DNA of 64,000 bases from positions 1,664,001 through 1,728,000 of the forward strand of contig CAXXDN010000002.1 in NCBI GenBank assembly GCA_963667465.2, read 5' to 3'. The translations under genes and the position numbers were made by a program. Within the stretch, counting starts at the first letter, position 1, and each line of letters begins with the position of its first letter. Below the pieces are notes generated by a model. It was not told the origin of the DNA and ran no database searches. It was given only the letters and a program-made list of their open reading frames with translations. Source of the stretch: Dehalococcoidia bacterium (GTDB taxonomy: Bacteria; Chloroflexota; Dehalococcoidia; UBA2979). Shown one piece after another: positions 23,866-51,310 of this stretch.

Positions 23866-23905
23866 TTTTGGTCGTAGCTTGGACGATGCTTGTTGTCGTC
23901 GTGGT
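23866..23905 (+). other. Candidate attL
   Basis: ATG-CT-TGTT-N7-TGGT, the inverse of ACCA-N7-AACA at 51231. Confidence 0.6.
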
Positions 23906-23941
23906 AGCTGCGAACAGTGCTGATCAGACTATCTGACGTCG

Positions 23942-23980
23942 GCGGGCTTCCAGTGCGCTTCGGGCACGACGAAAGCCCGC
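23942..23980 (+). terminator. Hairpin with C(UUCG)G loop near the ICE left end
   Basis: GCGGGCTT..GTGC.CTTCGG.GCAC..AAGCCCGC. Confidence 0.4.
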
Positions 23981-24040
23981 ACACATGGACGGAGACGGGG
24001 GGCACCGCCGCAGTGGCGATGCCCCCACCCGTCCCGTTGA

Positions 24041-26322
24041 TCAGGCCGCTCCCGCGAGTGAGCCTTCCTGCTCCCGCTCCAGCGCCCACTCGAAGAGCGA
24101 GAGCGTTGGAGCCTCGTCGTGGCGGCGACCCCGGGGCGGTAGCGGCTCCTCCGGCTTCCCGGCCATGAACTCCGCCCACGAGAACAGCGTGCGCTGCCGC
24201 TCGCGAGCAGCCGCCTCCGCGGCGTCGCCACGGACGACCGGCTCCGCTCCCGGTCCGGCCCCGGCCGTCACCAGCACTGGCTCCGGCTCGGATGCGTGCC
24301 AGCCCTCGTCGACCAGCAGCGCCTCGGCCTCCGCCGCGACCTGCCGCGCCTGCTCGAACACCGATTCGACCGAGCCGGCATCCTCCTCGCCCGCGACGAT
24401 CTTCCTCGCCAGGGCCAGCATCAGATCGTCGCCTTCGTCCCCGTAGGCGGCGAGGCCGTCCTCGGGCAGTTCGCCCTCGACGGCCAGCGAGCTCTGGAGC
24501 TTCTGCGCCACGAGCTTGAGGGCGTCCGCCTGCAGGGTGTTCCGGTAGGCCATGAAGACGACCTGGACGGGCTCGGTCTGGCCGATGCGCCAGGAGCGCC
24601 GTGACGCCTGCCTCATCGTGTACACGCTGTAATCCGTCTCGTACCAACACAGGGTCGGGAACTCCACGAGGTCGAGACCCGTCTGGACCAGCCGGGGATG
24701 GCAGACGAGCACATCGACACCCTCCTCGACCCGCTTCGCCACCCACGCCTCGCGGCGCTCCGGCGGCACCGCGTCGGCCTTCATGACCGCAACCCGGAAG
24801 CCGTGCCTGCCCAGGAACTCCTCCATGCGCCCGGTGATGTCGCGCGTTCCGGTGTGGGTCGCGTAGACGAGCACGCGGCGTCCCGCCAGCCGCTCGGCGG
24901 CGACGAGGTCGACGAGCGCCTGCTCCTTCGGGTAGAGCCGGTCCTCGGGGAGGGGCGGCACCTGCACGAGCAGCTCCTCCGACTCCGGGTCGAAGACCGT
25001 CTCGCCCTGCGTGCAGCCGTCGGGGTAGGCGAGCAGCGTCTGCAGGTAGGTGGCGAGCAGTCGCCGCGAGCCCTTCGAGAGCGCGTCGGCGAGCGCCGCC
25101 CTGAGCGTCCCGTAGAGCTCGTCGTAGCCCGAGCGCTGCGAGAGCCCGTTCCCGTCCGGCTCCGTGTCCATCGAGGAGAGCAGGACGCGCTCCTCGTAGG
25201 GCGGGAGACCGCCGGCGACGTCGGCGAGCCGCAGGAAGACCGAGTTGCCGATCAGGTGGAACAACGCGGCGGGGGCCAGACCGGGCGCTCGCGCACTACC
25301 TTGCGGTAGCGCTTGCGCCTGCTGGTGCGCCCGTCCTCGAAGGAGTCGCCGTCGTCGCGCCCGATCGTGTGCTCGACGAAGCCGTAGCGCTCGATCCAGC
25401 GGCTCTCCTCGGAGCGCCCGAACTCCCCCCGGATCTCCGGGCTGAACCGGTAGAGCAGGTGGAAGAGCGTCGAGGAGTAGCCGCCCATGAGCGTGCCGCT
25501 CAGCGAGAGCGATTTGCCGCAGGCGTCAGCGAGGACGCCGGCGGCGATGCCCTGCGCGGAGCCTCTTGCCTTGAACTCATGAACCTCGTCACCGATCAGC
25601 AGCTCGAAGAAGCCCCGCAGGCGGTGCTTCACGTAGTCGCTGAGCGGGTAGCGCTTCGGGCCGGAGCGGTCGGCCTGCCAGAGCGCGGCGCCGCACTCGC
25701 TGCAGGTGCGCTTGCGGCGGGCGAGGTCGCGGGCGAGCAGCGGCACCCCGTCCTTGTCCACGATCTGCTCGTGGCAGTCGGGGCAGCAGGGCACCCGGAA
25801 GGGCTCGCCCGTCTCCTCGTCGCGCACGAGGCCACGCGCCGTCGTGGCCCAGCGCTCGACGACGGCGGGCTGCCAGCGGTAGGAGAGCTTCGCCCGTTCG
25901 CGGCTCATCACCGCGAAGAGCGGGCCGTCGCCGGTCGCGGTCCGCAGCCGCTCGAGGTCGGTGATCGAGGCGACGATGACAGCTCGGGCGCCGGGCACCG
26001 TCTCCTCGACCTCGCGCTTCCACTTGCGCGTCAGGTGCGGCGGGCAAAGCACGAGCACTCGCTCGAAGCCCGCCATGTAGGCGGCTGAAGCCGCGATGAA
26101 GGTCTTGCCCGTGCCCATCTCCCCGACGACGGTCGTGCCGCGCTGCGCCTCAAGCGAGAGCGCCGCGCCGCGGATGGCGTCAGCCTGAGCGCCCAGCGGG
26201 GTGCGCAGCAGGCGTGGGAGTGGGCGGCCCTGCTCCGAGGGCCGGTAGCGGGGCGGGTAGGACTCCACCACCCGCCGGGCAATGGCGTCCCGGTACGTGT
26301 CGATGAATCCTGCGAGGTCCAT
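24041..26322 (-). CDS. SF2/SNF2-like helicase of the ICE, split by a 1-nt frameshift at ~25280
   Basis: GEMGTGKT, IGDEVH, LSGT, QTGLDL, QASRRSWRIGQ; adding one G restores RERPGLAPAALFHL. Confidence 0.85.
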
Positions 26323-26421
26323 GGTTCCGTTCCTTCCTTCTTGTTCTGGGTCGTGACGTGGCGAGGCCCCGCGATCGCAGTGACCGCGGGGCCTCGTGGA
26401 TGCGGCTCCGAGAGGAGCCGT

Positions 26422-26598
26422 CTATGCGGCGTCGCGCTGCGCGCGCTCGCAGCCGTCCGTGAGATGGATGGCCGTCACCGGGGAGGAGACGGCCCGTCCG
26501 CTGACGAGGTCCACCTCCGCGGTCCGCATCACCGGCTCGCCGGGTCGGATCGGCCGACCGCAGCGGGCGCAGGTCTCCGGGTCGAGGGGCAGCTGCAT
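26422..26598 (-). CDS. 58-aa zinc-finger-like protein (not in the ORF track)
   Basis: MQLPLDPETCARCGRPI..IHLTDGC; GGAGG RBS. Confidence 0.6.
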   Translation of the reverse strand: MQLPLDPETCARCGRPIRPGEPVMRTAEVDLVSGRAVSSPVTAIHLTDGCERAQRDAA

Positions 26599-26612
26599 CG
26601 TTCTTGCCTCCT

Positions 26613-27650
26613 TCAGGCGGCGATGTCGGTGATCTCGCCGAGGTCGAGGTCGAGCGCGACCACGGTGGTGCGCAGCCGCTCCCGGTAGACCTCCTTCTCG
26701 CGCGTGGTCTCGACGAGCAGCATCTCCTTACTCGTGCGGCCCTTGACGAGGATGCGCCCGCCGGCGCCCTCGAGCTGGAGGTTGTCGAGGAAGCCGGCCG
26801 CGACCAGCATCGCGAGGTGCCCGCGCCGCAGCGGCATGAGCGGCCGCGTGCGGGCGTCCTCGGACGGCCAGAGCGCGTCCGTTACGGTCGTGCTCACCCA
26901 GAGCCCGGAGCGCCGTGCTTCCGCAGCGGCCGCGATGGGGTCAACCGTGCGCGTGGCGAAGAGCACCTCGCCGTCCGCCGTCGCCGGGGCGTTGTAGACC
27001 GGGTAGCGCTGCGGGGTCAGCTCCTCGAGGTTGCCCTCGATCGCCTCCTGCAGCGCGACGGCGGCGTACTGGTCGTACTGCACCTCGGCCTTGCGGAGGC
27101 CGGTGACGACGACCTGGCCGAAGGCCTCGCGCTCGGGCTCCGGGAAGGCCCAGACGCGCAGGCTCCGGTAGTGTGAGGCGAGGTAGCGCGCCGACTCCGC
27201 CAGCCGCCGCAGCGGCACGACGAAGACCAGCAGCCCGCCCTCCGTGAGATAGCGCGTCGTCTGGCGCAGGAACGCCTGCTCCGTGCGCTTCTCGTCGTCT
27301 GCGGCGTCATTGTCGTAGGGCGAGTTCAGGTAGAGCAGCCCGAAGGCCCCGTTGGCGATCGCGGTCTGGAAGAGGCCCGTGCCCAGCGCGTGGTCGAGGC
27401 GGCTCTCCGCCTCCTTCGCGCGCTCGGCGTGGAGCTCCACCCCGTAGGTCTCCACCTGCGCTCCGTCGGGGCGCTCGATGGCGGAGGCGAGTTGCGCGAG
27501 CGCGTCCCCGGCCCCGCAGCAGGGGTCGAGGATGCGCAGCGTCGTCTCGCCACGGGTCACCGTCCGAGCCTGCGCGAGGGTCGCGATCATCTCCGTGACG
27601 CGTGGCGGGGTCGGGTAGAAGCCTCCCTTGAACTGCGCGGCCAGTCTCAT
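26613..27650 (-). CDS. DUF6094-type SAM-dependent DNA methyltransferase
   Basis: GFYPTP, ILDPCCGAG, YGVEL, LYLNSPYD; AAAGGAG RBS. Confidence 0.85.
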   Translation of the reverse strand: MRLAAQFKGGFYPTPPRVTEMIATLAQARTVTRGETTLRILDPCCGAGDALAQLASAIERPDGAQVETYGVELHAERAKEAESRLDHALGTGLFQTAIANGAFGLLYLNSPYDNDAADDEKRTEQAFLRQTTRYLTEGGLLVFVVPLRRLAESARYLASHYRSLRVWAFPEPEREAFGQVVVTGLRKAEVQYDQYAAVALQEAIEGNLEELTPQRYPVYNAPATADGEVLFATRTVDPIAAAAEARRSGLWVSTTVTDALWPSEDARTRPLMPLRRGHLAMLVAAGFLDNLQLEGAGGRILVKGRTSKEMLLVETTREKEVYRERLRTTVVALDLDLGEITDIAA

Positions 27651-28313
27651 CTCGTGTCTCCTTTCGTTCCGTTCGTCGTTGTCATTGGCTGCGCGCCCTC
27701 CGGCGGTAGCGTGAGCAGTCCCGAGCCGACCGCTACGGAGAGGTCCTCGCGCAGTGCCTCGGCGTCGGGGGTGCAGCGCCAGGCGTGGACACCCGCCGAC
27801 TGCAGGGGTGAGATCTCGCCCTTCGCCAGGCCCCGCCGCCAGAGCCACTCCGCCCAGTTGCGGTGCAGGGGCAGGGGACTGCGGCGGTCGAGGAAGCGAT
27901 GGTGGAGAGCCGGGGCCCTCGCCTCGCCGGGGGCGAGCAGCAGGAACGCGTCCCGCTCGAAGGCGTACTCGGCCATGCGGGTGTAGACCATCGCGTGCCA
28001 GCCCCCCCGAAACCGGGAGCCGCGCGATCTTGGTCGTCCACGTGCCGATCGTCTCGTGTGGTACCTCGCAGCGGTGGAAGCCGCCGGAGAGGGCGAGGCC
28101 GTCCGTTCCGGCGAGCAGGTGGGCGCTCTCCGGGGGCCGCTTGAGGAGGGCGGCCCAGATTGCCTTGAGGGCGCTCTGGGCGCCGACCATGGAGAGGAAC
28201 CAGAGTCCCTCGCTGTCGGGGTCGCGCGCGAAGGCGTCGGCGGTTGCCGAGAACCCTCCCGCGCTGATCGTGTACAGGTCGTCCGGGTTGATGGCGGCGT
28301 CGGCCGCGAGCAT
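27647..28313 (-). CDS. ICE conserved hypothetical protein, frameshifted in a G7 run at ~28005
   Basis: Removing one G joins LWFLSMVG.. to SGGWHAMVY..PLPLHRNWAEWLW; ATGA overlap with the MTase. Confidence 0.7.
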
Positions 28314-28376
28314 GGGCTGTTCTCCTTCCGGTAGTGAATGGGTGGCAGCGCGGGGGTGTCCCGCGTGCGCCGCGCC

Positions 28377-28868
28377 CTAGAAGAGGCCGCGGTCCTTGAG
28401 GCTGATGGCCTCGCTCCTGCCGATGACGACGTGGTCGAGCAACTCGACGCCGAGCAGCTTCGCCGCCTCCGCCAGGTCCTTCGTGACCTTGATGTCGTCG
28501 GGACTGGGCGAGGCGTCGCCGGAGGGGTGGTTATGGGCGATGATGATGTGAGGCACGGCCGCCACCACCGCCGGGCGCAGCACCTCGGCGGGGCGAACCA
28601 CCGACGAGTAGCAGTTGCCCTGGTACAGGACGCGCTGCCCGACCACCCGGTTGCGCCGGTCGAGCAGCAGCACCCGCACCTGCTCCTGAGCGAGCGCCCC
28701 CATCTCCGGCCCCAGCAGGCGCTGCACGTCCTGCGGGGAGCAGAGCGCGGGGGCGTCGTCCGCGCGCTCGGGGTCGACCTCGACCTCGTAGCGCACGGCC
28801 AGCTCGCCCAGCACGTGCAGGTTCTGGCGGAGGGCGTCCAGCAGGGCGTCCTCGTGCTTCGCCGTCAT
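28377..28868 (-). CDS. radC: RadC/JAB-domain protein
   Basis: QEQVRVLLLD, HNHPSGDASPSPDD, LLDHVVIG. Confidence 0.9.
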   Translation of the reverse strand: MTAKHEDALLDALRQNLHVLGELAVRYEVEVDPERADDAPALCSPQDVQRLLGPEMGALAQEQVRVLLLDRRNRVVGQRVLYQGNCYSSVVRPAEVLRPAVVAAVPHIIIAHNHPSGDASPSPDDIKVTKDLAEAAKLLGVELLDHVVIGRSEAISLKDRGLF

Positions 28869-29398
28869 GCCGCCACCTCCACGGGGATGGCCTGCCCGAG
28901 CGGGCAGATGCAGTCCTCGTGGTCGGGCGAGGCAGGATCGTCGCAGTCGAGGCAGAGGCCGCAGTTGCGGCACGCGACCCGCTGGTGGGCGGCGTCGCGG
29001 GCGTGCCGCCTGGCGACCGTGGCTTCCCAGCAGCAGTTGCGCTCGCAGTTGTCCCCGTGGTCGTCGCCGGCCGCGGCCTCCGGCTCGCAGCTGCGGCAGT
29101 GCGTGCGCCCCTTGATGACGGGGTAGCCGCAGCCCGCGCAGTCCCCGCCGTACTCGCCGTGCCGCTCCAGCTCGCGCCGCACGATCGTGCGGGCGAGCGG
29201 GTGGTCGTCGGGTCCGCCCGACTCGGCGACGTAGTGCCAGGCCCATCTCGCCCCGAGGTCGTCCCAGTCGTCGGTGCGATAGGACCAGCGGTCGCAGGTG
29301 CAGTGGCCGTTGAAGTGGTCGGGGCCCTCGAGCAGGGTCATGACCAGCGTGTGCGCGCTCCAGGTGGGGAGCGCGTCGCGTTCGCTCGTGCGTGCCAT
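28865..29398 (-). CDS. Cys/His-rich hypothetical protein
   Basis: Multiple CxxC/CxC motifs; AAGGAG RBS; overlap-coupled to radC. Confidence 0.7.
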   Translation of the reverse strand: MARTSERDALPTWSAHTLVMTLLEGPDHFNGHCTCDRWSYRTDDWDDLGARWAWHYVAESGGPDDHPLARTIVRRELERHGEYGGDCAGCGYPVIKGRTHCRSCEPEAAAGDDHGDNCERNCCWEATVARRHARDAAHQRVACRNCGLCLDCDDPASPDHEDCICPLGQAIPVEVAA

Positions 29399-29518
29399 GT
29401 TCGGTTCTCCTTCGTCGTGTTGCTGATCGGGTAGAACGAGAGCAGGGCCGCCCCCGTGAGGGAGCGGCCCCGTGTGCGCCCGCGCTCAGGCGGGCGGCGT
29501 CTGTGCGCCGGTCGTGGC

Positions 29519-29923
29519 TTAGAAGGGCTGGTCGTCCGCGACCTCGGCGGCGACAGCCTCGCGGCTGCCGTTGCCGTTGGAACGCCCGTTGCCCCCGTTG
29601 CCGTTCGAGTCGAGGAAGATGACCTCCTGCGCGTGCACCTCGGTGCGGTGCCGGCGCTCGCCGTCCTGCGTCTCGTACGTGTTCTGCGCGAGCGAGCCCG
29701 CGACGAACACCCTGTTGCCCTTCTTGACGTACTCGGCGACGGCCTCGGCCTGCTTGCCCCAGCAGACGACCGAGTGCCAGTCGGCCTCGGTCTCGCCGTT
29801 CTGGCGGCGGCGGTCGGTCGCCAGTCTGAGCTGGCAGATGGCCGTGCCGTTCTGCGAGTAACGCAGCTCCGGCTCCGTGCCTACCCGGCCCAGCAGCTCG
29901 ACGCGGTTCATGGTGCGTGACAT
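29519..29923 (-). CDS. ssb: Single-stranded DNA-binding protein
   Basis: NRVELLGRVG..PELRY, WHSVVCWGK, acidic DDQPF tail. Confidence 0.95.
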   Translation of the reverse strand: MSRTMNRVELLGRVGTEPELRYSQNGTAICQLRLATDRRRQNGETEADWHSVVCWGKQAEAVAEYVKKGNRVFVAGSLAQNTYETQDGERRHRTEVHAQEVIFLDSNGNGGNGRSNGNGSREAVAAEVADDQPF

Positions 29924-30118
29924 TTCAGATTCTCCTTCTGGTGATGGTTGTCACCGTGGTGGTGCGGCGAGAGCCGCACCTGGTTCGAAACGACGGCGGG
30001 GCCGCCCCGAAGGACGGCCCCGTTCGCGCTCCCGCATCGGGAGCGACTCTTCAGTGCTTGTGATTCAGGCACCCGCGATCGGCACCTCCTTTCGTTCGTG
30101 CGATGGCCTACGAGCCGC

Positions 30119-30856
30119 TCAGGCAGCCTTCGGCGTCTCCTCGGCGCGGGACTCCTCGCCCGCGTTGTCCTGCTGGAGCTTGCGCGCGGCGGCCTCCACC
30201 AGCGGGGTGAGGGCCGCCACCGGCAGCTCGTCGAGGTCACGGCCCGTGCGCTCGCGCACGGCGGACCGGACTTTCGCCTCGTCGAAGCCCCGGCACTGGC
30301 CGAGGTCGACGAGCGTCTTGCGCAGCGACGGCGCGAGGTCGCCCGTCGCGCCGTCGCCGTAGAGGCTGTTGCCGAACTGGTCGCCGTAGCTCCGCAGCGC
30401 CCGCTTGAGCGCGTCGGTCACCGCTCCCTTGTGCGCGGTCTCGTGGCCCTCGACGGTGTCGTCGGAGACGGCCTGGAAGCCGGTGTCAGTGCGCGGCGGG
30501 GAGCCGGGCACGGTGACCCGCACGGTGGCGGCGTAGGCCCGCCAGGGCTTCGCCTCACCCGTCTTCGGGTCGACGCTCTCGCCCTCCCGCAGTTCGACGG
30601 GGCCGACCAGGTCGTAGCCCCAGCCGCCGTGGCCGAAGACCCGGTTGGCCTGGTCGATGGCGGTGCGCCCCTCGAGGTAGGCGAAGCTGCGGCCCCTGCG
30701 CCCCCTGCGGTGCGAGACGAGGCCCTCGTCGAGGGGCTCGGCCAGCTTCGTGGTGACGGCGGGCGGGAGGCTGTCCCAGAGCAGTTCGCGCTCGGGGATG
30801 GTTGGTTCTGGGTGGACGCCGTTGCGGCGGCCGTTGAGGGTGGTGGTCTCTGCCAT
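30119..30856 (-). CDS. Rad52/22-family single-strand annealing protein
   Basis: FAYLEG..IDQANRVFGHGGW, KGAVTDALKRALRSYG.QFGNSLY. Confidence 0.9.
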   Translation of the reverse strand: MAETTTLNGRRNGVHPEPTIPERELLWDSLPPAVTTKLAEPLDEGLVSHRRGRRGRSFAYLEGRTAIDQANRVFGHGGWGYDLVGPVELREGESVDPKTGEAKPWRAYAATVRVTVPGSPPRTDTGFQAVSDDTVEGHETAHKGAVTDALKRALRSYGDQFGNSLYGDGATGDLAPSLRKTLVDLGQCRGFDEAKVRSAVRERTGRDLDELPVAALTPLVEAAARKLQQDNAGEESRAEETPKAA

Positions 30857-31057
30857 GTCTCTCTCCTTCGTGCTGCTCGTTGCCTGGGTGGACTGCTGCG
30901 GACCTCCCCGAAGGGAGGGCCGTGCGCGGGGCGGAGCCCCGTCGGTCATCGGTCATCGCGCCTCCTTCCGGTCGGCGGTTGGTCCGGCGGGCACACGGAT
31001 GCCGCCCGGCTCGCATGGAGCCGGGCTGTCCGGTGTCCGTCGCGTGGGATGGGTGGG

Positions 31058-35247: not shown

Positions 35248-35255
35248 TTCCCGCT

Positions 35256-37634: not shown

Positions 37635-37636
37635 CC

Positions 37637-39690: not shown

Positions 39691-39713
39691 CCCTCAAGCA
39701 AAGGACGATCACG

Positions 39714-42094: not shown

Positions 42095-44698
42095 ATGCGA
42101 TTCAACCCCTTCCACCAGTCCACTCCCACCGAGCCCGTGCTGCTGGCAGTGACACCGCCGCGCACGGGCGAGCGCACGCTCCTCGCCGTCGAGAATCTTC
42201 TGGCGTCGATCGCCGCGCCCGAGCCCTTCTCGCTCGAGCTCTGCGGCGACGCCGACGGGGTTACGCTGATGGCGCGCTGCCTGGATCAACAGGTGGTCCG
42301 GCAGCAGCTTTCCGCCCGTTACCCGCAGGCCCGCATCGACCGGCTGGAGTCGGCCGAGGACCCGCTGCGACTGGAGGCGGGCGAGCAGGCGTGGGCGATG
42401 ACGCTGCGCGCGAGCGGGCCGGAGTATGTGCCGCTGCGGGTCTTCAGCGACGACGACCTGCTGGACGCCGGCTCGGACCCGCTGCTGGCCCTCCTCGGCG
42501 CCCTCTCGGACGTGGGCGCGGGCGAACGCGTTGTGGCGCGGCTGCGGCTGCGCTCGCTCGGCCCCGACTGGTCGCGGGGCCACCAGGCCAGGGCGCACCA
42601 GCCAGCCGTGCAGGACCGGGCCGACTCGTACCAGATCAGCGAGTCGCGGCGGCACCGCGTCGAGCTCACGGGCGCCGCGCTGCTGGCGGTCGCCGGCGCG
42701 GGGCTCCTCCAGGGCTACCGCTGGTGGCAGGCGGGGGAGGAGTGGAAGACGGTCGCCCTCGGGACGGGCGTCGCCCTCGCGCTCGGCGTCGCCGGCTGGG
42801 CGTGGGCGCGCTGGCAGCGCTCGCGCAACCGCGTCCACGACCCGCTGCTGATCCGGGAGAAGGTCTCGCGCGTCGCCTTCGAGGCCGACATCGAGGTCGT
42901 CGCCATCGTGCCCGGGACGAAGCCGGACGAGGGTCGAGAGCGGGCCGAGGCGCTGCTCGGGGAGGTGGCGGCCGCCTACGGCAACTACGACCACCCCGCA
43001 GGGGCGCGCTTCCGGATGGGCCGGATGCGGCCCGCCCTGCCCGATCCGGCGGCGCTGCATCCGGCCGGCCCCGGCCTGCTCGGCGCCCGCAGCGTGCTTG
43101 GCGTGCGCGAGGTCGCCGCGCTCTGGCATCCGCCGGGGGCGAAGGACGAGACGCCGCTCGTGGAGCGCTCGGGCGCGCGCGTGCTGCTCCCCCCGGTGAG
43201 CGGCGTCGCCCGGGGCGCGCTCGTGGGCGAGACCACCGCCGGCGATCCCCGGCCGATTCATTTCTCCCACGACTTGCTGCGCCGCCACCACCTCTACGTG
43301 GCGCGCACGCGCATGGGCAAGTCGACGCTCATGCAGCATCTCGTCGTCCACAAGCTCGAGGAGAAGGCGGCGGGAAGGGATGGCGACGCGATCGTCGTCG
43401 TCGACCCCCACGCCGACCTCGTGGAGAGCATCCTCGAGCAGGTGCCCGAGTCCCTGGCGGGGCAGGTGCGGCTGGTCGACCTCGCGGGCAGTGGCGGCTA
43501 CCCCGGCGTCAACCTGCTCGACACGCGCGTCTTCAGCGACCGCGACCGCACCGCCGACTCGGTCGTGCGCGTGGCGCGCGGGCTCTGGGAGCAGTGGGGC
43601 CCGCGCATGCAGTCGATCCTCGAGCAGGTCGTGAAGACCCTGCACGAGTACAACGCCCACCCGGACACGCCCGCCGACGAGCAGCTCACGATCCTCGACG
43701 GGCTGCGGCTGCTCTCGCACGATAAGTTTCGCTCACTCGTGCGGGAGCGGGTCACGGACGAGTTCCTGCTCGACTGGTGGGCGCGCGACTTCGCCTCGTG
43801 GACGCGCCAGTACCAGGCCGACGCGCTCGCGCCCGTGCAGACGAGGCTCTCCTACTACGCCTCGTCGAAGCGCGCGCGGGCGATCCTCGGCCAGCCCCGC
43901 TCTACGATCGACCTCAGGCGCACGATCCTGGACGGGGGCGTGCTGCTGGTGTCGACGGCGCAGGGCGCGGCCGGGCGCGACGTCGCTGCGCTCGTCGGCG
44001 CCTCCGTCCTCAACCTTGTCGACGCCGTGATCCGCGAGCAGGGCGAGCTGCCGCCCGAGCAGCGCCGCGGCGCTCTCGTGGTCGTCGACGAGATGCAGTC
44101 GATGCCGGGCGTCGACTACGAGTCGATGCTCTCCGAGCTGGGCAAGTTCGGGGCGTCGCTCGTGCTCGCCACCCAGAGCCTCGCCAAGCTCGACGAGCTC
44201 TCGCCGACGATGCGCGACACGCTGCTCGCCAACATCGGCTGCCTCGCCGTCTTCCAGGTGGCGGGCACGGACGCGCGCCAGCTCGTCTGGGAGCTGGACC
44301 GCGAGCGCGTCTCCGAGGAGGACATCGTCTCGCTGCCCGTGCACCACGCTTACGTGCGCGCGACGGTCGGGACGGAGCGCACGCCCGCCTTCTCGATGGA
44401 GGTGCTCAAGCCCGACGAGGGGAGTGCGGAGACGGCGGCGCGTATCCGCTCGGAGGCATCCGCCTACCTGCTCACCGACGAGGAGATCGCGGCGCAGCGC
44501 GCCGAGGGGCGCAGGCGCGTCGAGCGCCGGCTCGAAGAGCGCGAGAAGGCTGGCAAGGCCGAGGACGGGACCAGCAACGGTGGACCCGATTCCTCCCCGG
44601 ACAAGGCCGGTGCGTCCGGGGAGGAGTCGCGCGGGAAGCGGTCGCGCAGCAAGCGCAACCAGACGCCGGACGGCGCCTCCGCCGAGGGCGCGGCGTGA
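42095..44698 (+). CDS. VirD4/TraD-like coupling protein
   Basis: HLYVARTRMGKST, VDPHADL, VVDEMQ, LATQ; 2 TMs; alternative in-frame start at 42035. Confidence 0.88.
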   Translation: MRFNPFHQSTPTEPVLLAVTPPRTGERTLLAVENLLASIAAPEPFSLELCGDADGVTLMARCLDQQVVRQQLSARYPQARIDRLESAEDPLRLEAGEQAWAMTLRASGPEYVPLRVFSDDDLLDAGSDPLLALLGALSDVGAGERVVARLRLRSLGPDWSRGHQARAHQPAVQDRADSYQISESRRHRVELTGAALLAVAGAGLLQGYRWWQAGEEWKTVALGTGVALALGVAGWAWARWQRSRNRVHDPLLIREKVSRVAFEADIEVVAIVPGTKPDEGRERAEALLGEVAAAYGNYDHPAGARFRMGRMRPALPDPAALHPAGPGLLGARSVLGVREVAALWHPPGAKDETPLVERSGARVLLPPVSGVARGALVGETTAGDPRPIHFSHDLLRRHHLYVARTRMGKSTLMQHLVVHKLEEKAAGRDGDAIVVVDPHADLVESILEQVPESLAGQVRLVDLAGSGGYPGVNLLDTRVFSDRDRTADSVVRVARGLWEQWGPRMQSILEQVVKTLHEYNAHPDTPADEQLTILDGLRLLSHDKFRSLVRERVTDEFLLDWWARDFASWTRQYQADALAPVQTRLSYYASSKRARAILGQPRSTIDLRRTILDGGVLLVSTAQGAAGRDVAALVGASVLNLVDAVIREQGELPPEQRRGALVVVDEMQSMPGVDYESMLSELGKFGASLVLATQSLAKLDELSPTMRDTLLANIGCLAVFQVAGTDARQLVWELDRERVSEEDIVSLPVHHAYVRATVGTERTPAFSMEVLKPDEGSAETAARIRSEASAYLLTDEEIAAQRAEGRRRVERRLEEREKAGKAEDGTSNGGPDSSPDKAGASGEESRGKRSRSKRNQTPDGASAEGAA

Positions 44699-46329
44699 CC
44701 GTCGAGCGCGACCTGTTGCGGCTGCTCGGAGAAGCGCCCTTCCTGGACCGGCTGGAGATGGCCGCGCTCTCCGGCTGGTCGAGGGGCGCGGTCTACGCCA
44801 ACTGCGAGGCGTTGGAGGAAGCAGGGCTCGTCGCGTCCCTCCCCCACGCCTTCGAGCTCGTCGCCCCGACGCAGCGCTACTCCCTCACGCTCGCCGGGCT
44901 GCAGCGGCTCGCCGAAGAGCAGGGAATGGGCCTGGACGAGTTGCTGCGCTCGCGGCCGCTCACGGCGCACTGGCGGCGGCTCCTGCTGGAGCGCCTCGAC
45001 GCGGTGGCCTCGGTCTACCGGCTCGCTTCGGCGATCACCGGCCAGTCCTGGCCGCTGCGCTTCCGCTGGTACCGGGCGCAGCCGATGGACGCCGCGGTCG
45101 CGCTCCCCGACGGGCGCACATTGTTCGTCGTGCGGCAGGGCGAGACGGCCGACCGCACGTCCTTCGCCAAGCGCCTCTGGCGGCTGCGCGAGGGGCCGCG
45201 CCCGGGTGCCTACCTGCTGCTCGTCCCGGACCCCGTGCGGTTGCGCCACACGGCGCGGCTGATGGCGCGGGCGTCCGCCCCCTCCTTCCTTGGACTCGAA
45301 CGGGATGTGGTCGCTTCCGGGGCTGCGGCGCGCGTCTGGCGCACGGCTGCCGGCTCGCCGTGGCTCTCGCTCGGCGAGGCGCTCACGCACGTGGGGGACA
45401 GTCGCGCCTGGCCGCAGGAGGAGCCGCTCACCCGGGCGACGGTCCCACGCGACCTCCAACTGGCCGAGCTCCACCGGGCGCCGGGCTGGCTGCTCCCCGC
45501 CCTGCTCAGGCCGGCGGAGAAGCGCGTCCTCGGCCTCATCGCCGACTGGCCGTGGATCGCGCCCGCCCACCTGGGCGAGCTGCTCGGCGTCTCGCCGCGG
45601 CGCGTCTCGCAGCTCCTGCAGCCGATCGAGGAGGCCGCCCTCGCGAACCGCGTCTCGGGGAGGCTCGTGCTCGGCGACCGCGGGCTGGAACTGCTCGCGC
45701 GCCGCGACCGCTCCGCCGTCCATCTCGCTCGCTCGCGCTGGAGCGCCCGGCCGCTGCACCCCGCCGCGCCGCTCGGGTGGCGCAACGTCTCCGGCAGGCG
45801 CAGCCGCCAGCTCCTGCGCACGATCGAGCACACGGCCGCCGTCCACTGGTTTGTCGCGGCGCTCGCGAAGCAGGCGCGGGAACACGGCCGGGAGGTGGTG
45901 CAGATCGACCCGCCGCACCGCGCCTCGCGTTACTTCCGGGACGGAGTTGCCGTCTACTCCGTCCACCCGGACGCCTTCGGCGTCCTGCGCACGGACGGGA
46001 AGCCGTGGCCGTTCTTCCTGGAGTGGGAGCGCCGCGCCGTGAGGCCCTCGACGATGACCGCGCGCCTCGCGCCCTACCTGCGCTACTACGCCTCGCAACG
46101 CCCCACGGACGACCACGGCGTCCGCCCCGCCGTGCTCGTCGTCTTCGAGGACGAACTCGCCGCTCACCACTTCCTGGGCGTCGCCCGCGCGCAGATGAAA
46201 CGCGCCCCCGTCGAGGTTCCGCTAGGCGTCTCGCACCGCGCGCTGCTGCAACGGCAAGGGCCGCTGGGAGCCGCCTGGCGCACGGTTGCCACCGCCGAAC
46301 CCTCGCGCCCCTGGCGCCAGTCCGCCTGA
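44695..46329 (+). CDS. Replication-relaxation (Replic_Relax) family relaxase with tandem domains
   Basis: Two wHTH-led halves; EHTAAV..HPDAFG..FFLEWER; GTGA overlap with T4CP. Confidence 0.8.
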   Translation: MTVERDLLRLLGEAPFLDRLEMAALSGWSRGAVYANCEALEEAGLVASLPHAFELVAPTQRYSLTLAGLQRLAEEQGMGLDELLRSRPLTAHWRRLLLERLDAVASVYRLASAITGQSWPLRFRWYRAQPMDAAVALPDGRTLFVVRQGETADRTSFAKRLWRLREGPRPGAYLLLVPDPVRLRHTARLMARASAPSFLGLERDVVASGAAARVWRTAAGSPWLSLGEALTHVGDSRAWPQEEPLTRATVPRDLQLAELHRAPGWLLPALLRPAEKRVLGLIADWPWIAPAHLGELLGVSPRRVSQLLQPIEEAALANRVSGRLVLGDRGLELLARRDRSAVHLARSRWSARPLHPAAPLGWRNVSGRRSRQLLRTIEHTAAVHWFVAALAKQAREHGREVVQIDPPHRASRYFRDGVAVYSVHPDAFGVLRTDGKPWPFFLEWERRAVRPSTMTARLAPYLRYYASQRPTDDHGVRPAVLVVFEDELAAHHFLGVARAQMKRAPVEVPLGVSHRALLQRQGPLGAAWRTVATAEPSRPWRQSA

Positions 46330-46475
46330 GGTACGGCAGCGGGCGGCCCCCTCATCGGGTGCGCCGCTCAACGTCCACCGGAGGTCGCGCTCACGCCCCG
46401 TGCAGGTCCGCGACACCCCGTCGGGCGCGGCTCCCCTGCCTGCTGAGCCCGTCACATATATGATACGCTCCATGC

Positions 46476-46823
46476 ATGCCGGAGGTCGTCTACTACGAGA
46501 CAGCGAGGGGGGACGAACCCGTTGCCGCGTACGTCGAACGACTTGGGCGCTCGGGGGACAAACGCGATGTGGCGGCGATCCTCGATCTGATCGTGGAGCT
46601 GGAGGAACAGGGGAGCGCGCTGCGCATGCCTGATGCCCGCATCATCGACCGCAACGCGCGCATCTTCGAGTTGCGCCCGCGCTCGCACCGGATTGCCTAC
46701 GCCGAGCATGGAGGTCGCTACGTCCTCCTCCACGCCTGGCGGAAGCAAGCGCAGCGCCTCGATCGAAGAGCGCTCGCCACCGCCCAGCGGCGGCTTGCAG
46801 ACTGGAGGAGCCGTCATGGCTAG
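46476..46823 (+). CDS. RelE/ParE (Gp49-like) toxin
   Basis: YETARGDEPV, IFELRP..HRIAY, VLLHAWRK. Confidence 0.85.
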   Translation: MPEVVYYETARGDEPVAAYVERLGRSGDKRDVAAILDLIVELEEQGSALRMPDARIIDRNARIFELRPRSHRIAYAEHGGRYVLLHAWRKQAQRLDRRALATAQRRLADWRSRHG

Positions 46824-47115
46824 GAACGCCAGACCACACATTGAACAGATCGTCACCGCCGATCCCGACATCCAGGCGGAGTACGAGACCCTGCGACTGC
46901 GCCGCGCGATCGTCGGCCAGCTGCGCGCCCTGCGCGAACGAAAGCGCTGGACCCAGCAGCAGCTCGCCGACGCCGTCGGAGTGCCGCGAAGCGCGATCGC
47001 CCGTCTCGAGTCGGCCGAGCACAGCCCGCGCCTCGAGACCCTGCACGCCGTGGCGCGCGTGCTCGGCTACGACGTGGATGTTCGCCTGAAGCGCCGACGG
47101 GTACCGGTCGCGTAA
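46816..47115 (+). CDS. XRE HTH antitoxin (HigA-like)
   Basis: TQQQLADAVGV.RSAIARLES. Confidence 0.85.
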   Translation: MARNARPHIEQIVTADPDIQAEYETLRLRRAIVGQLRALRERKRWTQQQLADAVGVPRSAIARLESAEHSPRLETLHAVARVLGYDVDVRLKRRRVPVA

Positions 47116-47202
47116 TCTCGCCCAATCGAGGGCCGCTCGCTGTTTGCCGCACCGCCCCTCTCGGACCCGATGACAAGCGAGGCGGCTCGCGATCTGCCGG
47201 GC

Positions 47203-47475
47203 TCAGGCTGCTGTCGGTCGCTCCTCGGAGTGCGACGCGGCGAATGCCCGTCCTTCGTCCGTCAGCGTGATCGCGCGCGCCCGTCCGGGGACGCGCCTGA
47301 TAAGGCCGGCGCGCTCGCACGCCGCCAGCCGGTACGCGACCACCGAAGTGGAACTCGCACCGGTCCGCTTCTGCAGGTCGCGGACCGTCGGCGGGTAGCC
47401 GTGCTCGGCCCCGTGCTCGGCGATCGCCTCGACCAGGGCGGGCATCCAGTCTCTTCTGGATACTGTGACTCTCAT
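47203..47475 (-). CDS. Stand-alone LexA DNA-binding domain protein
   Basis: HGYPPTVRDL..SSTSVV..L..GLIRR.PGRARAI; no S24 peptidase domain. Confidence 0.8.
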   Translation of the reverse strand: MRVTVSRRDWMPALVEAIAEHGAEHGYPPTVRDLQKRTGASSTSVVAYRLAACERAGLIRRVPGRARAITLTDEGRAFAASHSEERPTAA

Positions 47476-47912
47476 GGAATACCTCCGTTCTCGGGGAGCC
47501 GCGCCTGCACCCGCACTACCTCGCCGGGCACTCCGAAGTGTTCCGCGACTTCCCATGCGTAGACGAAGCCAGCTTCCAGCGCCTCGTCCTCGTCGATGAG
47601 GAGCGCGTGCGCGAAGTCCTCCGCCTCGCGCTCCCATGGGCGCGGCAGGTCGGTGTGCTCGCGCTGCTCGATGTGATTGCCCGGATGCATCAGGCGGTGC
47701 GCGATGGCGTGGGCGATCACCCAGCGCCGCCACTCTGGTTCCAGTCGCTTCGCCACCGCGATCTGGCCGTCGATCTGCATCTCCTTCTGCACCTCGAAGT
47801 GCCACGGCCAGACCTCCAGCCCGAGCTCGTTGGCGACCGCCACGGCGTCCACGCGCCCGCGCAGGCCCAGCTTCTGGCGCAGCGTCCCCGCCCGTCGCCG
47901 CGCCCGGGTCAC
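47472..47912 (-). CDS. ImmA/IrrE-family protein with HAxxH in place of HExxH
   Basis: RRWVIAHAIAHRLMH, EREAEDFAHALL, AEHFGV. Confidence 0.8.
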   Translation of the reverse strand: MTRARRRAGTLRQKLGLRGRVDAVAVANELGLEVWPWHFEVQKEMQIDGQIAVAKRLEPEWRRWVIAHAIAHRLMHPGNHIEQREHTDLPRPWEREAEDFAHALLIDEDEALEAGFVYAWEVAEHFGVPGEVVRVQARLPENGGIP

Positions 47913-48277
47913 CGCTCGCCTCGCTTGCGCCTCTGGCGCCGCCGGCGCACGAAGTCGATGAACTCCTGGATCGACTGCACGTCCTCATCGGGCAGGTCGT
48001 CGACGGCGTCACGGAACGAGACCTCCGCCTCCTTGCGTAGCTCCGAGATGACGACGTCCCGGCCTTCCAGTTCGCGTACGCCGGTGCCGCAGTGGAAGGC
48101 GATCTCAACGAGGTTGTCGTGGACCGGCTTCATGCGGCCCGCCTCCCAGGCCCAGGCGGTGTTCGAGGCGACCCCGACGAGGCCGGCCAGTTCTTTCTGG
48201 GTCAGGCCCGCGCCCATGCGCGCCGCGCGGATCCGGGCGCCGAGTGCCTTCCAGCGGTAGCCCTGGTCATCGGCCAT
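47909..48277 (-). CDS. ImmR-like XRE repressor
   Basis: IRAAR..GLTQKELAGLVGV..WEAG. Confidence 0.85.
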   Translation of the reverse strand: MADDQGYRWKALGARIRAARMGAGLTQKELAGLVGVASNTAWAWEAGRMKPVHDNLVEIAFHCGTGVRELEGRDVVISELRKEAEVSFRDAVDDLPDEDVQSIQEFIDFVRRRRQRRKRGER

Positions 48278-48325
48278 GGCACGCAACTCCTGTTCATTGC
48301 TGCGGATCCCCGGCGTCGTTCCGTC

Positions 48326-48355
48326 TTGACACCGACTCTGTGTATACATAGAGTC
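48326..48355 (+). promoter_or_regulatory. Sigma70-like promoter overlapped by a 22-bp palindromic operator
   Basis: TTGACA-17-TAGAGT; GACTCTGTGTATACATAGAGTC. Confidence 0.7.
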
Positions 48356-48398
48356 TACACCTCTAAGCAGAGAACGCCAACGAGGAGTCCCGCAGCCC

Positions 48399-48644
48399 AT
48401 GCGACACCCGGCACGACCCGTGGCCATGCTCAGGCAGGAGGCGTTCTGGCAGCGCCTGAACGTGCTCGGGCGCTCGCAGAACTGGGTCGCGCGCGAGGCC
48501 GGCATCAGTCGCGGCTACCTCTCCATGCTCGCCAATGGCAAGCGCGCGGCCTCCGGTCGCGTCAGGCGCGGGCTGATGCGGATCCTCGAGGTGGAGGACG
48601 TTCATGAGCTGTTCTTCTTCAGGCCACCGCCAGACGAGGCATGA
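48399..48644 (+). CDS. Cro-like XRE HTH protein
   Basis: SQNWVAREAGISRGYLSML. Confidence 0.8.
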   Translation: MRHPARPVAMLRQEAFWQRLNVLGRSQNWVAREAGISRGYLSMLANGKRAASGRVRRGLMRILEVEDVHELFFFRPPPDEA

Positions 48645-48681
48645 GGTCGCTCCGCGCCTGTCGCACTACGCTGGCGGCCCC

Positions 48682-48954
48682 GTGATCGCTGGCCAGCCTG
48701 TGCCCTTCGGCAACGGCGCGCTGCCGCCGGATTTCTCCGCGCGCGTCGACCGCCTGAAGCGGGCCAGCGGCCTCACCTGGGACGCCTTCGCCGAGGCGCT
48801 GGGAGTGGAGGCGAAGCAGGTGCTGCGCTGGCGCCGGGGCACGGAGCCGTGCGGCGGGGCCCACCACGCCCTCGTCAGGCTGGCGCGCTGGATTCCGGGC
48901 GGGCTCGACATCCTCATGGGCGAGGACTTCCTCCCCCGACGCGGGGAGGGCTGA
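48682..48954 (+). CDS. XRE HTH protein
   Basis: DF..RLKRASGLTW..AEALGV..RWRRG; start uncertain. Confidence 0.7.
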   Translation: MIAGQPVPFGNGALPPDFSARVDRLKRASGLTWDAFAEALGVEAKQVLRWRRGTEPCGGAHHALVRLARWIPGGLDILMGEDFLPRRGEG

Positions 48955-48958
48955 GGCC

Positions 48959-49222
48959 GTGCCGCGCCAGCGCCCTCGCTCCCCGCGCGCCGCCTACGAC
49001 GTGCCCGGCGACTTCGCCGGAGCGTTCGAGCGCCTGAAGGAGGCGTCCGGCCTGACGTGGACGGAGCTGGCCCGTCGGCTCGGCACGACCGACTCCAACC
49101 TGTGGCGCTGGCGCAACGGCGTGCTTCCGAATACCCGCAATCTCCTCGCACTCCAGGATCTCGCGCGCCGCCTTGGCCTCGAACACTTGCTGCCCACGGC
49201 GAGCGCCCGCGAGCGCTGGTAG
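48959..49222 (+). CDS. XRE HTH protein (paralog of preceding gene)
   Basis: DF..RLKEASGLTW.ELARRLG..RWRNG. Confidence 0.75.
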   Translation: MPRQRPRSPRAAYDVPGDFAGAFERLKEASGLTWTELARRLGTTDSNLWRWRNGVLPNTRNLLALQDLARRLGLEHLLPTASARERW

Positions 49223-49367
49223 AACCGGTCGTCATGCCCGCCAACGCCGGCGTCCCGCACCACTGCATCCGTGCAGTGCCCTTCGGGGGATTACGGAACC
49301 ACCTCCCGTCCGGCCACGATCGAAGCGGCAGCACGCGTTCCGTGCGCGAACGCTACGGGAGTGGCCC

Positions 49368-49577
49368 GTGTCGAGCAGTAACGAGCACCCACTGGCCGGC
49401 CCGGCCACCGATGATGACCCCACGTCGTCCCGGATACGGGTCAGGTGGAAGTCTGGACCGCGGACGCGCGCCTGGGACGAGCTGTGGCGCTGGCTGCTCG
49501 CTCCCGACGAACTCCTTCCCCCTCGCTCCGAGGGAGCGTCCGCAAGCGGTGAGCGGGAACGGCGCCGAGGACGCTGA
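49368..49577 (+). CDS. Small protein upstream of the integrase (directionality-factor candidate)
   Basis: GGGAG RBS, AWDELWRWLL; position. Confidence 0.45.
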   Translation: MSSSNEHPLAGPATDDDPTSSRIRVRWKSGPRTRAWDELWRWLLAPDELLPPRSEGASASGERERRRGR

Positions 49578-49691
49578 CCAGCGCCCCTCTCCCCGGCTCC
49601 CGCCTTCTACCCGGCCGTTTCGCTTGCCTCGACCGGTAGGCTGGAACGAGCGATGCCGATGACTCACATCCCCGACCCGACGGAGACTGCT

Positions 49692-51254
49692 ATGCGAGCA
49701 ATCATCTACTCCCGCGTCTCGACCGACGCCCAGGAACGCGACGGAACCTCGCTCGATACGCAGGAGCGCGCCCGCGACGAGGTGGCCGCCGACCGCGGCT
49801 GGCGTGTGGTGCGCCGTATCCGCGAAGCCGCGAGCGGCGGGATGCTCGAACGTGACGGCCTCGACGAGTTGCGGGAGGCGCTGCGAAGGGGAGAAGCGGA
49901 GGTGGTCGTCGCCTTTGCCGTTGACCGCCTCTCACGCAGCCAGAACCACATCGGCATCCTCTTCGACGAGTTCGAGCGCGCTGGCGTGCGCCTGGAGTTC
50001 GTGACCGAGCGCTTCGAGGACACGGCCGTGGGGCGCTTCATCCTCGCCGCGCGCGCGTTCATCGCCGAGGTCGAGCGGGAGAAGATCGCCGAGCGCACGA
50101 TGCGCGGCAAGGAGGAGCGGGCGCGCAGCGGGCGCCTCCCGCAGGCGTTCGGGCGCGGCTGCTATGGATACACCTACAACGCCGGCACCGGTCGCCGCGA
50201 GGTTGAGCCGTTCCAGGCTGCGGTCGTCCGGCGCATCTTCGAGCGCTACGCCGCAACCCGCAGCTTCTCGGCCGTCTCCAACGAGCTCAACGAGGCCGGC
50301 ATCCCCGCGTTCTCAGGGGGGCGCTGGTACCCGATCACCGTCCGTCGGTCGCTACTCAACGAGGCCTACATCGGCCGCACGGTGTACCGACGGACAAAGC
50401 GCGTTCGGGTGCCGGCCGCCGGGAGGCGCAGGCGGACGCGTGTCGTCGAGCGGCCCGAGGAGGAGCGGATCGAGATTCCGGACGCCACGCCAGCAATCAT
50501 CGAGCACGACCTGTGGGAGCGCGTCCAGGCGATCCTGAACGACCCCGAGCGCACGAAACGGCGTTCCACGCCGAAGCGAGACTACGTGCTGCGCGGCCGT
50601 CTGCGCTGCGGCGTTTGTCGCAGCGCGATGGTGGGACACACGCTCAGCGCCAAGGGCAAGAGCTACGCGTACTATCGCTGCCGTCACGCCTACGCTCGCA
50701 ACACGGGCCACCACTGTACGGCTCGCTACGTCCCGGCGGAGGCGCTGGAGCAAGAGATCCACGCCGAGGTGCGCAAGGTGCTTACCGCCCCGGAAGTCGT
50801 CCTGAGCGAACTACGACAGCAGGGCGGGTCGGACGCCGACAGTGAAGCGCGCGAGGGCCTTGAGGCGGAACTGGCGGCGCTCCAGAGGCGCGAGGAGCGC
50901 CTTGTGCGGCTCTTCGGCTACGACGAGGTCGACGGCGACGTGGTCCGCGCGCAGTTCCGCGAGGTGCAGCAGCGGCGGGCGATGCTCAACGGCGAGTTGG
51001 CCTCGCTCACAAGCGCCCGAACGCCGCTGGGTGAGGATGTTGATGAAGGGCTCCTTCATGAAGCGTGTGCAGCCATTGCCGCGCGACTCGATGAAGCCGG
51101 ACCGGCGAATCAACAGGTCGTGCTCGAGGCGATGCAGGTGAACGCCACCGCGACCCGCGAAGAAGTGACGATCGAGGGGATTCTGCCGCTCAAACCCGCA
51201 GAATCTGCTCAATCCTGCACTGAGTTTAAGACCATTGAACAAACATCGGTATGA
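49692..51254 (+). CDS. Large serine recombinase (integrase)
   Basis: YSRVST catalytic Ser, DRLSR, recombinase domain, CGVC..YYRC zinc ribbon, coiled coil. Confidence 0.95.
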   Translation: MRAIIYSRVSTDAQERDGTSLDTQERARDEVAADRGWRVVRRIREAASGGMLERDGLDELREALRRGEAEVVVAFAVDRLSRSQNHIGILFDEFERAGVRLEFVTERFEDTAVGRFILAARAFIAEVEREKIAERTMRGKEERARSGRLPQAFGRGCYGYTYNAGTGRREVEPFQAAVVRRIFERYAATRSFSAVSNELNEAGIPAFSGGRWYPITVRRSLLNEAYIGRTVYRRTKRVRVPAAGRRRRTRVVERPEEERIEIPDATPAIIEHDLWERVQAILNDPERTKRRSTPKRDYVLRGRLRCGVCRSAMVGHTLSAKGKSYAYYRCRHAYARNTGHHCTARYVPAEALEQEIHAEVRKVLTAPEVVLSELRQQGGSDADSEAREGLEAELAALQRREERLVRLFGYDEVDGDVVRAQFREVQQRRAMLNGELASLTSARTPLGEDVDEGLLHEACAAIAARLDEAGPANQQVVLEAMQVNATATREEVTIEGILPLKPAESAQSCTEFKTIEQTSV

Positions 51255-51310
51255 AGCTCCGGTCGTGCGAAAAAGGGTGCGCCAGGTTGTACCTGGCGCT
51301 CTCGTTCTGA
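51231..51310 (+). repeat. Candidate attR plus copy 1 of the 60-bp direct repeat with hairpin
   Basis: ACCA-N7-AACA-TCGGT-ATG; 51251-51310 matches 60248-60307 at 57/60. Confidence 0.75.

Follow-up and report, generated by a model that had tools for sequence, protein, structure and literature searches.

An integrase gene that ends in its recombination partner: a probable dnaN-targeting conjugative element in a Dehalococcoidia bacterium

Does the excision of an integrative and conjugative element (ICE) rewrite the C-terminus of its own integrase? The question is raised by a stretch of 64,000 nucleotides, referred to below as the window, from the genome of a Dehalococcoidia bacterium (Chloroflexota, GTDB lineage UBA2979; assembly GCA_963667465.2, contig CAXXDN010000002.1, positions 1,664,001 to 1,728,000 of the forward strand), in which an ICE ends at the gene of a large serine recombinase (LSR), here called LSR1, with an arm of its attachment (att) site lying over the 3′ end of that gene. 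This layout had been correctly recognised in the original prediction, made from the letters of the window, which went on to propose an attL at 23886-23905 and an attR at 51231-51258, a unique host site, a crossover at a shared ATG, and an integrase whose excised form would be six residues longer and would differ in stability or activity. The comparison with related genomes leads to another explanation, which is considered fairly likely: the element would belong to a family of ICEs that target dnaN, strand exchange would occur at a GG dinucleotide, the partner at this locus would be a repeat named U1, the cognate far end, named U3, would have been lost, and the altered integrase tail would be a by-product. 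All positions are those of the window unless a contig is named; G000 is the genome studied, C2 its contig, and G001, G009, G014, G015 and G018 are relatives.

The LSR1 gene (49653..51254, plus strand) is a complete open reading frame (ORF) for a protein of 533 residues, in which Pfam recognises the three domains of a large serine recombinase, Resolvase (106.1 bits), Recombinase (88.5 bits) and Zn_ribbon_recom (50.6 bits), each above its cut-off. The protein ends in ..TIEQTSV, and its stop codon TGA lies at 51252-51254. The core of the ICE (23974..51254) was delimited with BLAST by its collinearity, at 76-93% nucleotide identity, with an element of G001 that adjoins dnaN. This homology ends at 51254 on the right and at 23974 on the left, where G001 carries an insertion sequence (IS); the right end of the ICE is defined, and the left one only confined to 23730-23973. 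Both motifs on which the original prediction was built are present as described, namely GGACG (23881-23885), ATG (23886-23888), CT, TGTT (23891-23894), seven further nucleotides and TGGT (23902-23905) on the left, and ACCA (51231-51234), seven nucleotides, AACA (51242-51245), TCGGT, ATG (51251-51253) and AAGCT (51254-51258) on the right.

The right-hand motif belongs to a conserved arm, ACCA-N7-AACATCGG, which, when read on the strand of dnaN, corresponds to the last codons of that gene (..MPMFVQW and the stop), a C-terminus that is nearly invariant across the class, being found in 28 of 28 complete ends among the 30 loci fetched. In the window this near arm, or P arm, of the LSR1 att site occupies 51224..51247 on the plus strand, where its antisense spells a replacement for the dnaN tail (..PMFVQWS and the stop) while the arm itself codes for ..FKTIEQT of LSR1. 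G000 has a single dnaN (C2:1799987-1801117, minus strand), and a second LSR gene (C2:1798449-1800020), whose product is 52% identical to LSR1, converges on it with an overlap of 40 nt. Among the Chloroflexota loci of LSR homologues that carry the arm motif, 17 of 21 continue into sequence that is dnaN antisense in G000 and G001, a continuation judged by eye, with dnaN confirmed by protein search in the set of relatives; the other four continue into U1-, U2- or U3-type sequence. The three closest relatives of LSR1 all directly adjoin dnaN: that of G001 (97% amino-acid identity), whose element is the one collinear with 23974-51254, that of G018 (~94% nucleotide identity over the LSR region) and that of the metagenome contig L155 (95% amino-acid identity). 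Because most of the homologues, these three relatives among them, sit on dnaN, the natural attB of the LSR1 family can be identified, by comparison, as the 3′ end of the single-copy dnaN. Insertion would leave dnaN intact, since this arm carries a substitute for the dnaN tail in antisense: the stretch 51224-51247 would restore the dnaN tail on one strand and encode the last residues of the integrase on the other, and the final codon of the integrase, together with its stop, would be donated by the recombination partner. A displaced native dnaN tail was not found in G000 or in the G001 region at up to 3-4 mismatches. The dnaN gene of this genome (C2:1.80 Mb) lies apart from dnaA and gyrB (C1:0.42-0.43 Mb), the usual linkage of dnaA and dnaN being absent.

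Where within the conserved stretch does the exchange take place? The original prediction had placed it at the ATG (51251-51253), and the most likely central dinucleotide is instead the GG at 51248..51249, 2 bp to the left, so that the right boundary was correct to within 2-5 bp. Dyad symmetry was scored over 24 nt on each side of the centre in 11 registers. The LSR1 near arm combined with U3 gives 16 matches of 24 at the GG register and at most 9 at any other, and the LSR2-type near arm combined with U1 gives 15 of 24, with at most 11 elsewhere; among 100,000 random 24-mers none reached 16, and a fraction of 3e-5 (3 in 100,000) reached 15. LSR1 arm and U3 together would thus form an attP of ~50 bp with imperfect dyad symmetry around a non-palindromic 2-bp centre, as a composite of two genomes, G018 and G001. 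Both other U1 copies of G000 begin to match at exactly 51248. A further indication comes from the base that follows the GG, which is C wherever the partner is dnaN (G001, G018 and L155) and T here and in most U1 copies, irrespective of the integrase arm opposite, U1 itself having T or C. With a crossover at the ATG this base would have to travel with the integrase arm, and it is observed to follow the partner instead. That the base before the ATG differs between the two proposed ends (G against T) had been noted as a caveat from the start. An early candidate for the crossover, GTTT (23863 and 51224), was dropped after the arm had been recognised as a mimic of the dnaN tail.

The sequence to the right of the junction had been taken for the host attB, and it turns out to be U1 (51250..51366, plus strand), a repeat present in three copies in G000 (window 51248, window 60245 and C2:1730126) and in many in the relatives, where they are usually clustered a few kb apart in one orientation. 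The AGCTT..AAGCT symmetry ascribed to that attB is a 5-nt inverted repeat whose right half belongs to this repeated element, not to a unique host site. Of 19 genomes in the genus, 17 contain matches to a pattern for the dnaN tail, 37 in all (reversed control, 0), and on the dnaN-bearing contigs of nine genomes the additional copies are found downstream of dnaN, on its own strand. Among the 30 copies fetched, 16 lie away from dnaN, every one of them with a U1 (4), U2 (8) or U3 (4) sequence before it, and in most of these an integrase gene follows. A single-copy target, same-orientation repeats of its 3′ end downstream, and an integrase beside the repeats, the marks of tandem islands, are thus found together. 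In G000 the array extends from the LSR1 element to dnaN (C2:1687886-1800004, ~112 kb), and therefore the junction at 51248 joins the LSR1 arm to the end of another element and not to a host site. From the repeat copies and the 15/24 dyad with the LSR2-type near arm, the right flank would be the far end of a neighbouring LSR2-type element, so that the partner of LSR1 here would be U1, neither dnaN nor a host site. The LSR1 element would be the unit furthest from dnaN in an array built, in an order that we infer, by repeated insertion at or beside dnaN-like junctions. Sequence downstream of dnaN in G009 and G014 was considered as a source of empty sites and dropped, as it is not present in G000 and both genomes carry arrays.

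The cognate far end of the LSR1-type integrase is, on comparative grounds, predicted to be U3. It flanks the far side of the G001 element, which spans 87 kb from dnaN to the U3-bearing junction, and the U3 region recurs, 99% identical, at a contig end of G018. Some 2.3 kb away from U3, both G001 and G018 have a gene that shares 86% identity with one in the left flank of the window (8304-11300), which encodes a eukaryote-like protein, a homologue of animal haem peroxidase (998 residues, 497.9 bits). In G000, sequence resembling U3 was not found at up to 7 mismatches in 28. The present left flank is a fragment of an IS256/Mutator-family transposase gene with an IS end (22832..23729, plus strand; partial Pfam Transposase_mut), of which G015 copies, 90% identical, end at 23726. 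With U3 missing and this IS fragment adjoining it on the left, the element has probably undergone truncation or rearrangement on that side, and clean excision may have become impossible; its left part would have been lost or replaced.

What remains to be explained is the left att site of the original prediction, which falls in a 244-nt interval bounded by the IS fragment, ending at 23729, and by the homology with G001, beginning at 23974. It is a weak far-arm-like half-site (CGATGCTTGTT..TGGT; 23877..23905, plus strand), whose centre in the canonical register is AC (23883-23884). The central dinucleotides of the two proposed sites, AC on the left and GG at 51248-51249 on the right, differ, and therefore the two sites, as they stand, are not the products of one exchange. 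The motif TGTT-N7-TGGT occurs five times in the window, against 0.32 expected from shuffles, and three of the five lie in unrelated coding DNA; a 21-mer from the left end has no homologue above the reversed-pattern control in the 19 genus genomes. The composite of the two sites, expected from the ATG join to be a symmetric attP, has 11 of 24 dyad matches about the GG, which is no better than the LSR1 arm achieves with the non-cognate U1 or U2, and equal or better partners occur elsewhere in the same interval (13 at 23753, 12 at 23874, and 11 at 23885, 23787 and 23930). The hairpin at 23942, said to follow the excised tail, is present and modest (z = -2.16; 5 of 200 shuffles fold as well).

Neither an empty site nor a circle came to light in the material covered. 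The left flank (23300-23900) and the right flank (51240-51900) are adjacent in none of the 40 relatives searched, and the empty-site sequence of the original prediction is not supported; an apparent adjacency in G015 was rejected, as it is an IS inserted into a U1 copy. (This IS256-like element, at G015:C1:1979065-1982488, is 90% identical to 23302-23726 and lies in the hairpin of that copy.) Alignment of the far side of G001 to 23650-23990 was no better than that of shuffles, save for one 16-mer chosen by eye, and left of 23886 these alignments contained no recognisable target-side arm; other elements with the same helicase module continue beyond it into unrelated sequence. Read-level data consisted of Logan contigs from four runs, the holders listed being metagenomes of sponges together with runs of a single organism, coded as organism B. 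The contigs covering 19000-23624 and 23666-24105 match the window exactly, and the latter bridges the proposed left junction unchanged in all four runs at flank-like depth, in contigs that are blind to rare circles. Among the rows listed for these runs there was no joint or loose end near 23880 and no informative joint for the circular junction, rare excision being invisible in such contigs. An exact search of metagenome contigs with a 26-mer across the junction of P arm and U3, taken from the natural G001 junction (L087), gave 0 matches.

The part of the original prediction that concerned the integrase itself fared better. In 36 of 37 distinct junctions, the frame that is continuous with the integrase meets its first stop beyond the GG, and the C-terminus depends on the partner, as had been proposed for LSR1. 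In the three closest relatives, at dnaN, the antisense of that gene supplies a codon GCA and the stop TGA, giving a tail ..TSA; in the window, U1 supplies GTA and TGA, giving ..TSV; and in a natural junction of G001, where an integrase in the same frame stands beside U3, there is TGG in the place of the TGA of dnaN and the frame runs on for 31 residues. Counted from the final residue whose codon lies entirely before the crossover (..TIEQTS or ..HHCTNI), the extensions amount to 1, 7, 20 or 31 residues, the 7 being those of the join originally proposed; that arithmetic was right, and the specific tail is not supported. Structurally, a state-dependent C-terminus is thus real in principle across the family. 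The conserved DNA is read in each of the three frames, with the tails TIEQTSA, HHCTNIGMTTWV and SPLNKHRH.., and conservation lies in the DNA and not in the tail peptide. This use of three frames favours a by-product of the overlap between att arm and dnaN tail, which would most simply explain the changing tail and fits better than the proposed degron or isoform; the tail would then be without function. A seemingly natural fusion of integrase and U1 ORF in G018 was rejected as a truncated, probably frameshifted integrase remnant, and was not counted.

That U1 ORF deserves separate consideration. It comprises 19 codons (51251..51310, plus strand), and its ATG overlaps the TGA of LSR1 in the sequence ATGA; a second copy in the window lies at 60248-60307, and others are in L010-L016, L112 and L131-L147. 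The consensus reads M-K/T-L/T-R-S-C-E-K/R-G-C-A-R..L-S-F, and exactly 19 codons are kept in 20 of 23 copies. With the three copies that have lost their start or stop left out, the ratio of nonsynonymous to synonymous polymorphism (pN/pS) is 0.44 for this frame, whereas the remaining two give 1.28 and 1.67, which, by this measure, shows the ORF to be under purifying selection. It is in frame with the LSR2-type integrase tail. In ten of the 23 copies the place upstream is taken by a Shine-Dalgarno-like stretch and not by an integrase. Before these ten stands a conserved stretch of ~45 nt that ends in TTTCTCACCAC and the purine-rich Shine-Dalgarno-like sequence, for example at 60200-60244, at C2:1730080-1730125 and in L135, L137, L140-L143, L145 and L147; in the window it heads the second U1 copy (60200..60307, plus strand), in the place of an integrase gene. 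This stretch may be a decayed LSR2-type arm or a ribosome-binding site selected for the micro-ORF, and the ORF itself may be a micro-gene that stands alone, or else the tail that an LSR2-type integrase has in the excised state. In relatives U1 continues, on the minus strand, into an intact parE and then parD (Pfam); in the window, position and nucleotide similarity point to a remnant of a parE-like 3′ end of 25 codons (51336..51413, minus strand), followed downstream by a terminator-like hairpin and a T run (51279..51299, minus strand).

Several observations weigh against a dnaN-targeting element with a GG crossover and a lost U3, and they are best considered together with the explanations that they favour. 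When the right arm is reverse-complemented, CGATGCTTGTT (23884-23894) agrees with it at 10 of 11 contiguous positions, a score attained by 96 of 20,000 random 244-nt genomic windows (p ~0.005), and the composite of the two sites first proposed is symmetric precisely about the GG, with its 11 matches against 8 or fewer in the other registers. The left site might thus be a degenerate far arm that is still usable, at best a degenerate half-site. The link between LSR1 and U3 comes from two genomes, with 87 kb between integrase and U3 in G001 and a contig break between them in G018. The position of the GG, for its part, rests on comparison and symmetry: since both partners share AACATCGG(C/T)ATGA, identity by itself cannot place the breakpoint more finely than 51242-51254, and the GG call is for this reason one that we infer. 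A unique host site, an ATG crossover and a switch tail, as originally proposed, nevertheless make a very improbable combination, despite the existence of the motifs and the close match of the left one to the right arm. The right flank is a repeat with three copies in the genome and many in the relatives; the left site reads AC at the position of the central GG, finds no homologue in the genus and is equalled or surpassed by other registers of its own interval; the base before the ATG follows the partner and not the integrase arm; the cognate far end in the relatives is U3; and the frame of the tail is not conserved in the family.

Two other explanations keep the dnaN connection. According to one of them, which is possible and rather doubtful, the LSR1 element inserted itself into U1 as a pseudo-attB that mimics dnaN, at the far side of the array, so that 51248-51249 would be a true attR and the left junction would later have been damaged by an IS. 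U1 does start like the antisense of dnaN (with ATGACGACG in more distant copies), an intact integrase arm stands ahead of 6 of the 23 U1 copies, and G018 has the same islands to the right of U1 as G000, 99% identical, with a different, truncated integrase on the left, a layout that fits insertion at the side of U1 at least as well as accretion at the side of dnaN. Yet U1 pairs far better with the LSR2-type arm (15/24) than the body side of dnaN does with any near arm (6-7/24), and therefore looks like the far arm of an element and not like a half-site of the target; nor is a recognisable target-side arm found left of 23886. The other explanation, to which only a small probability is given, makes the changing tail a selected function: the integrases would be short at dnaN, and the circle would add 31 codons (U3, LSR1 type) or the 19-codon U1 ORF (LSR2 type), with an effect on activity, stability or the binding of partners. 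The stop beyond the crossover in 36 of 37 junctions speaks for it, although the frames were picked by the longest open stretch, and among these rows L070 (minus strand) is spurious and L088 a truncated pseudogene of doubtful frame. The TGA of dnaN against the TGG of U3 at the same position, and the constant length, low pN/pS and frame of the U1 ORF, point the same way. Against it, an intact junction of an LSR2-type integrase with U1 was not observed among the junctions compared, the ten U1 copies with their own Shine-Dalgarno-like stretch and no upstream integrase suggest a free-standing micro-ORF, and frame and length of the tail vary between integrase types. In a general form of the idea, the integrases of this family would never have a stop of their own and would take it from the partner, every member being short at dnaN and extended on the circle, with the 19-codon U1 ORF as the extension of the LSR2 type; this would amount to a selected isoform specific to the excised state, or else to a micro-protein whose translation is coupled to that of the integrase through the ATGA, and is likewise unlikely.

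Tandem arrays of serine-integrase elements inserted at the 3′ end of an essential gene are of a kind already known. What seems to be new is the use of dnaN as the target, together with the antisense arrangement in which an att arm, the tail of dnaN and that of the integrase share one stretch of DNA. Full-text literature searches yielded no description of the coding end of dnaN as the target of a serine integrase, and the main text of Durrant et al. 2022 makes no mention of dnaN, which the supplementary target tables of that work may list. If the picture of a dnaN-targeting family holds, a single stretch of ~25 bp serves as the binding arm of the integrase, as the last six codons of dnaN and, on the opposite strand, as the C-terminus of the integrase. 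It would explain how many elements can accumulate behind dnaN without harm to that gene, and would supply studies of serine-integrase specificity with many naturally occurring, related attP and attB sites that have a GG core. The original idea would then become a question for the whole family: does an integrase that takes its stop codon from the target change its behaviour after excision?

As to its gene content, the element is probably conjugative, to judge from its domain matches. These comprise a TrbL/VirB6-like type IV secretion protein (35888..37237, plus strand; 33.6 bits against a cut-off of 25.9), a VirB4/TraC-like ATPase (39183..41948, plus strand; P-loop_TraG, 47.5 bits against 25.8), a Replication-relaxation (Replic_Relax) protein with a winged helix-turn-helix (43777..46329, plus strand; 30.1 bits against 25.3), and, by domain search on the minus strand (29519..32320), an SSB (29519-29923), a Rad52/22-like protein (30119-30949) and a DnaG-type primase (31058-32320); a coupling-protein match at ~44024-44285, in another frame, stays below threshold (TrwB_AAD_bind, 20.0 bits against 20.5). 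The left part of the core holds, on the minus strand and by Pfam, a helicase in two ORFs (Helicase_C and ResIII; 24041..26322), a multi-copy module in the genus, and a DNA methyltransferase (DUF6094/N6_Mtase; 26613..28313). This helicase and methyltransferase module is present in several copies per genome in the genus and widespread among many elements; in four sponge-associated runs, its summed contig depth over 24010-29000 is 10-100 times the depth of the unique flank. Neither Rfam nor tRNA scans gave a match in the window. The island between the first two U1 copies (51797-60244) bears defence-like cargo, namely an IrrE/ImmA peptidase with an XRE regulator, in a region 99% identical in G018, a DUF6791-ThiF protein with a DUF6527 protein, and an AbiEii/AbiEi pair. 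Further to the left in the window are genes for a eukaryote-like protein with leucine-rich and InlB repeats (3128-7882, 1584 residues) and, on the minus strand, for a superfamily 1 helicase of 1796 residues fused to an MTES_1575/DUF559 endonuclease domain (17496-22886). In the cargo of the G001 element (G001:C3 ~3061768-3071596, L062), ~15 matches of one 10-mer are spaced at 702 bp, probably within the gene of a large repetitive protein.

Several known systems share parts of this arrangement. The staphylococcal cassette chromosome elements (SCC and SCCmec) use the Ccr serine recombinases to insert at the 3′ end of a conserved gene, rlmH (orfX), restore the end of that gene and form composite tandem arrays. 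They differ from the present elements in that the ccr genes lie inside the element and not across the att site, and in that neither an antisense overlap of integrase and target nor conjugation genes are known for them. In the integration-dependent immunity of mycobacteriophages, attP lies inside the repressor gene, and, as here, an ORF crosses attP and the C-terminus of its product differs between the integrated and the excised state; there, a tyrosine recombinase acts on the gene of a repressor and a degradation tag has been demonstrated experimentally, whereas here the gene is that of the serine integrase itself and the change is known from sequence. Archaeal viruses of the SSV1 type carry attP inside the gene of their tyrosine integrase, which is split in two by integration; the integrase ORF again crosses the att site and integration alters the gene, and the difference is that only the last 1 to ~30 codons and the stop are changed in the family described here. 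A pneumococcal prophage that lies between dnaN and ychF likewise adjoins dnaN and excises as a circle, at a 14-bp intergenic attB that affects the ychF promoter and not at the coding end of dnaN, and it is not described as using a serine recombinase (PMC6375853). Also among the closest systems are the ssrA genomic islands of Dehalococcoides, whose serine recombinase is DsiB and which lie in tandem, each with a repeat of the gene 3′ end at its boundary, in an account that also mentions the SCC elements (PMC3146451). They come from the same bacterial class, encode an integrase of ~540 residues of the serine-recombinase family, insert at the 3′ end of a single-copy essential gene and form tandem islands within ~100 kb downstream of it, some units being without an integrase (PMC3146451). 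The elements described here differ in that their target, dnaN, codes for a protein, so that the repeat must encode a working C-terminus, in that the integrase gene converges on the target and overlaps it, and in their possession of type IV secretion genes, the verdict on the ssrA islands having been that they are mobilizable only (PMC3146451).

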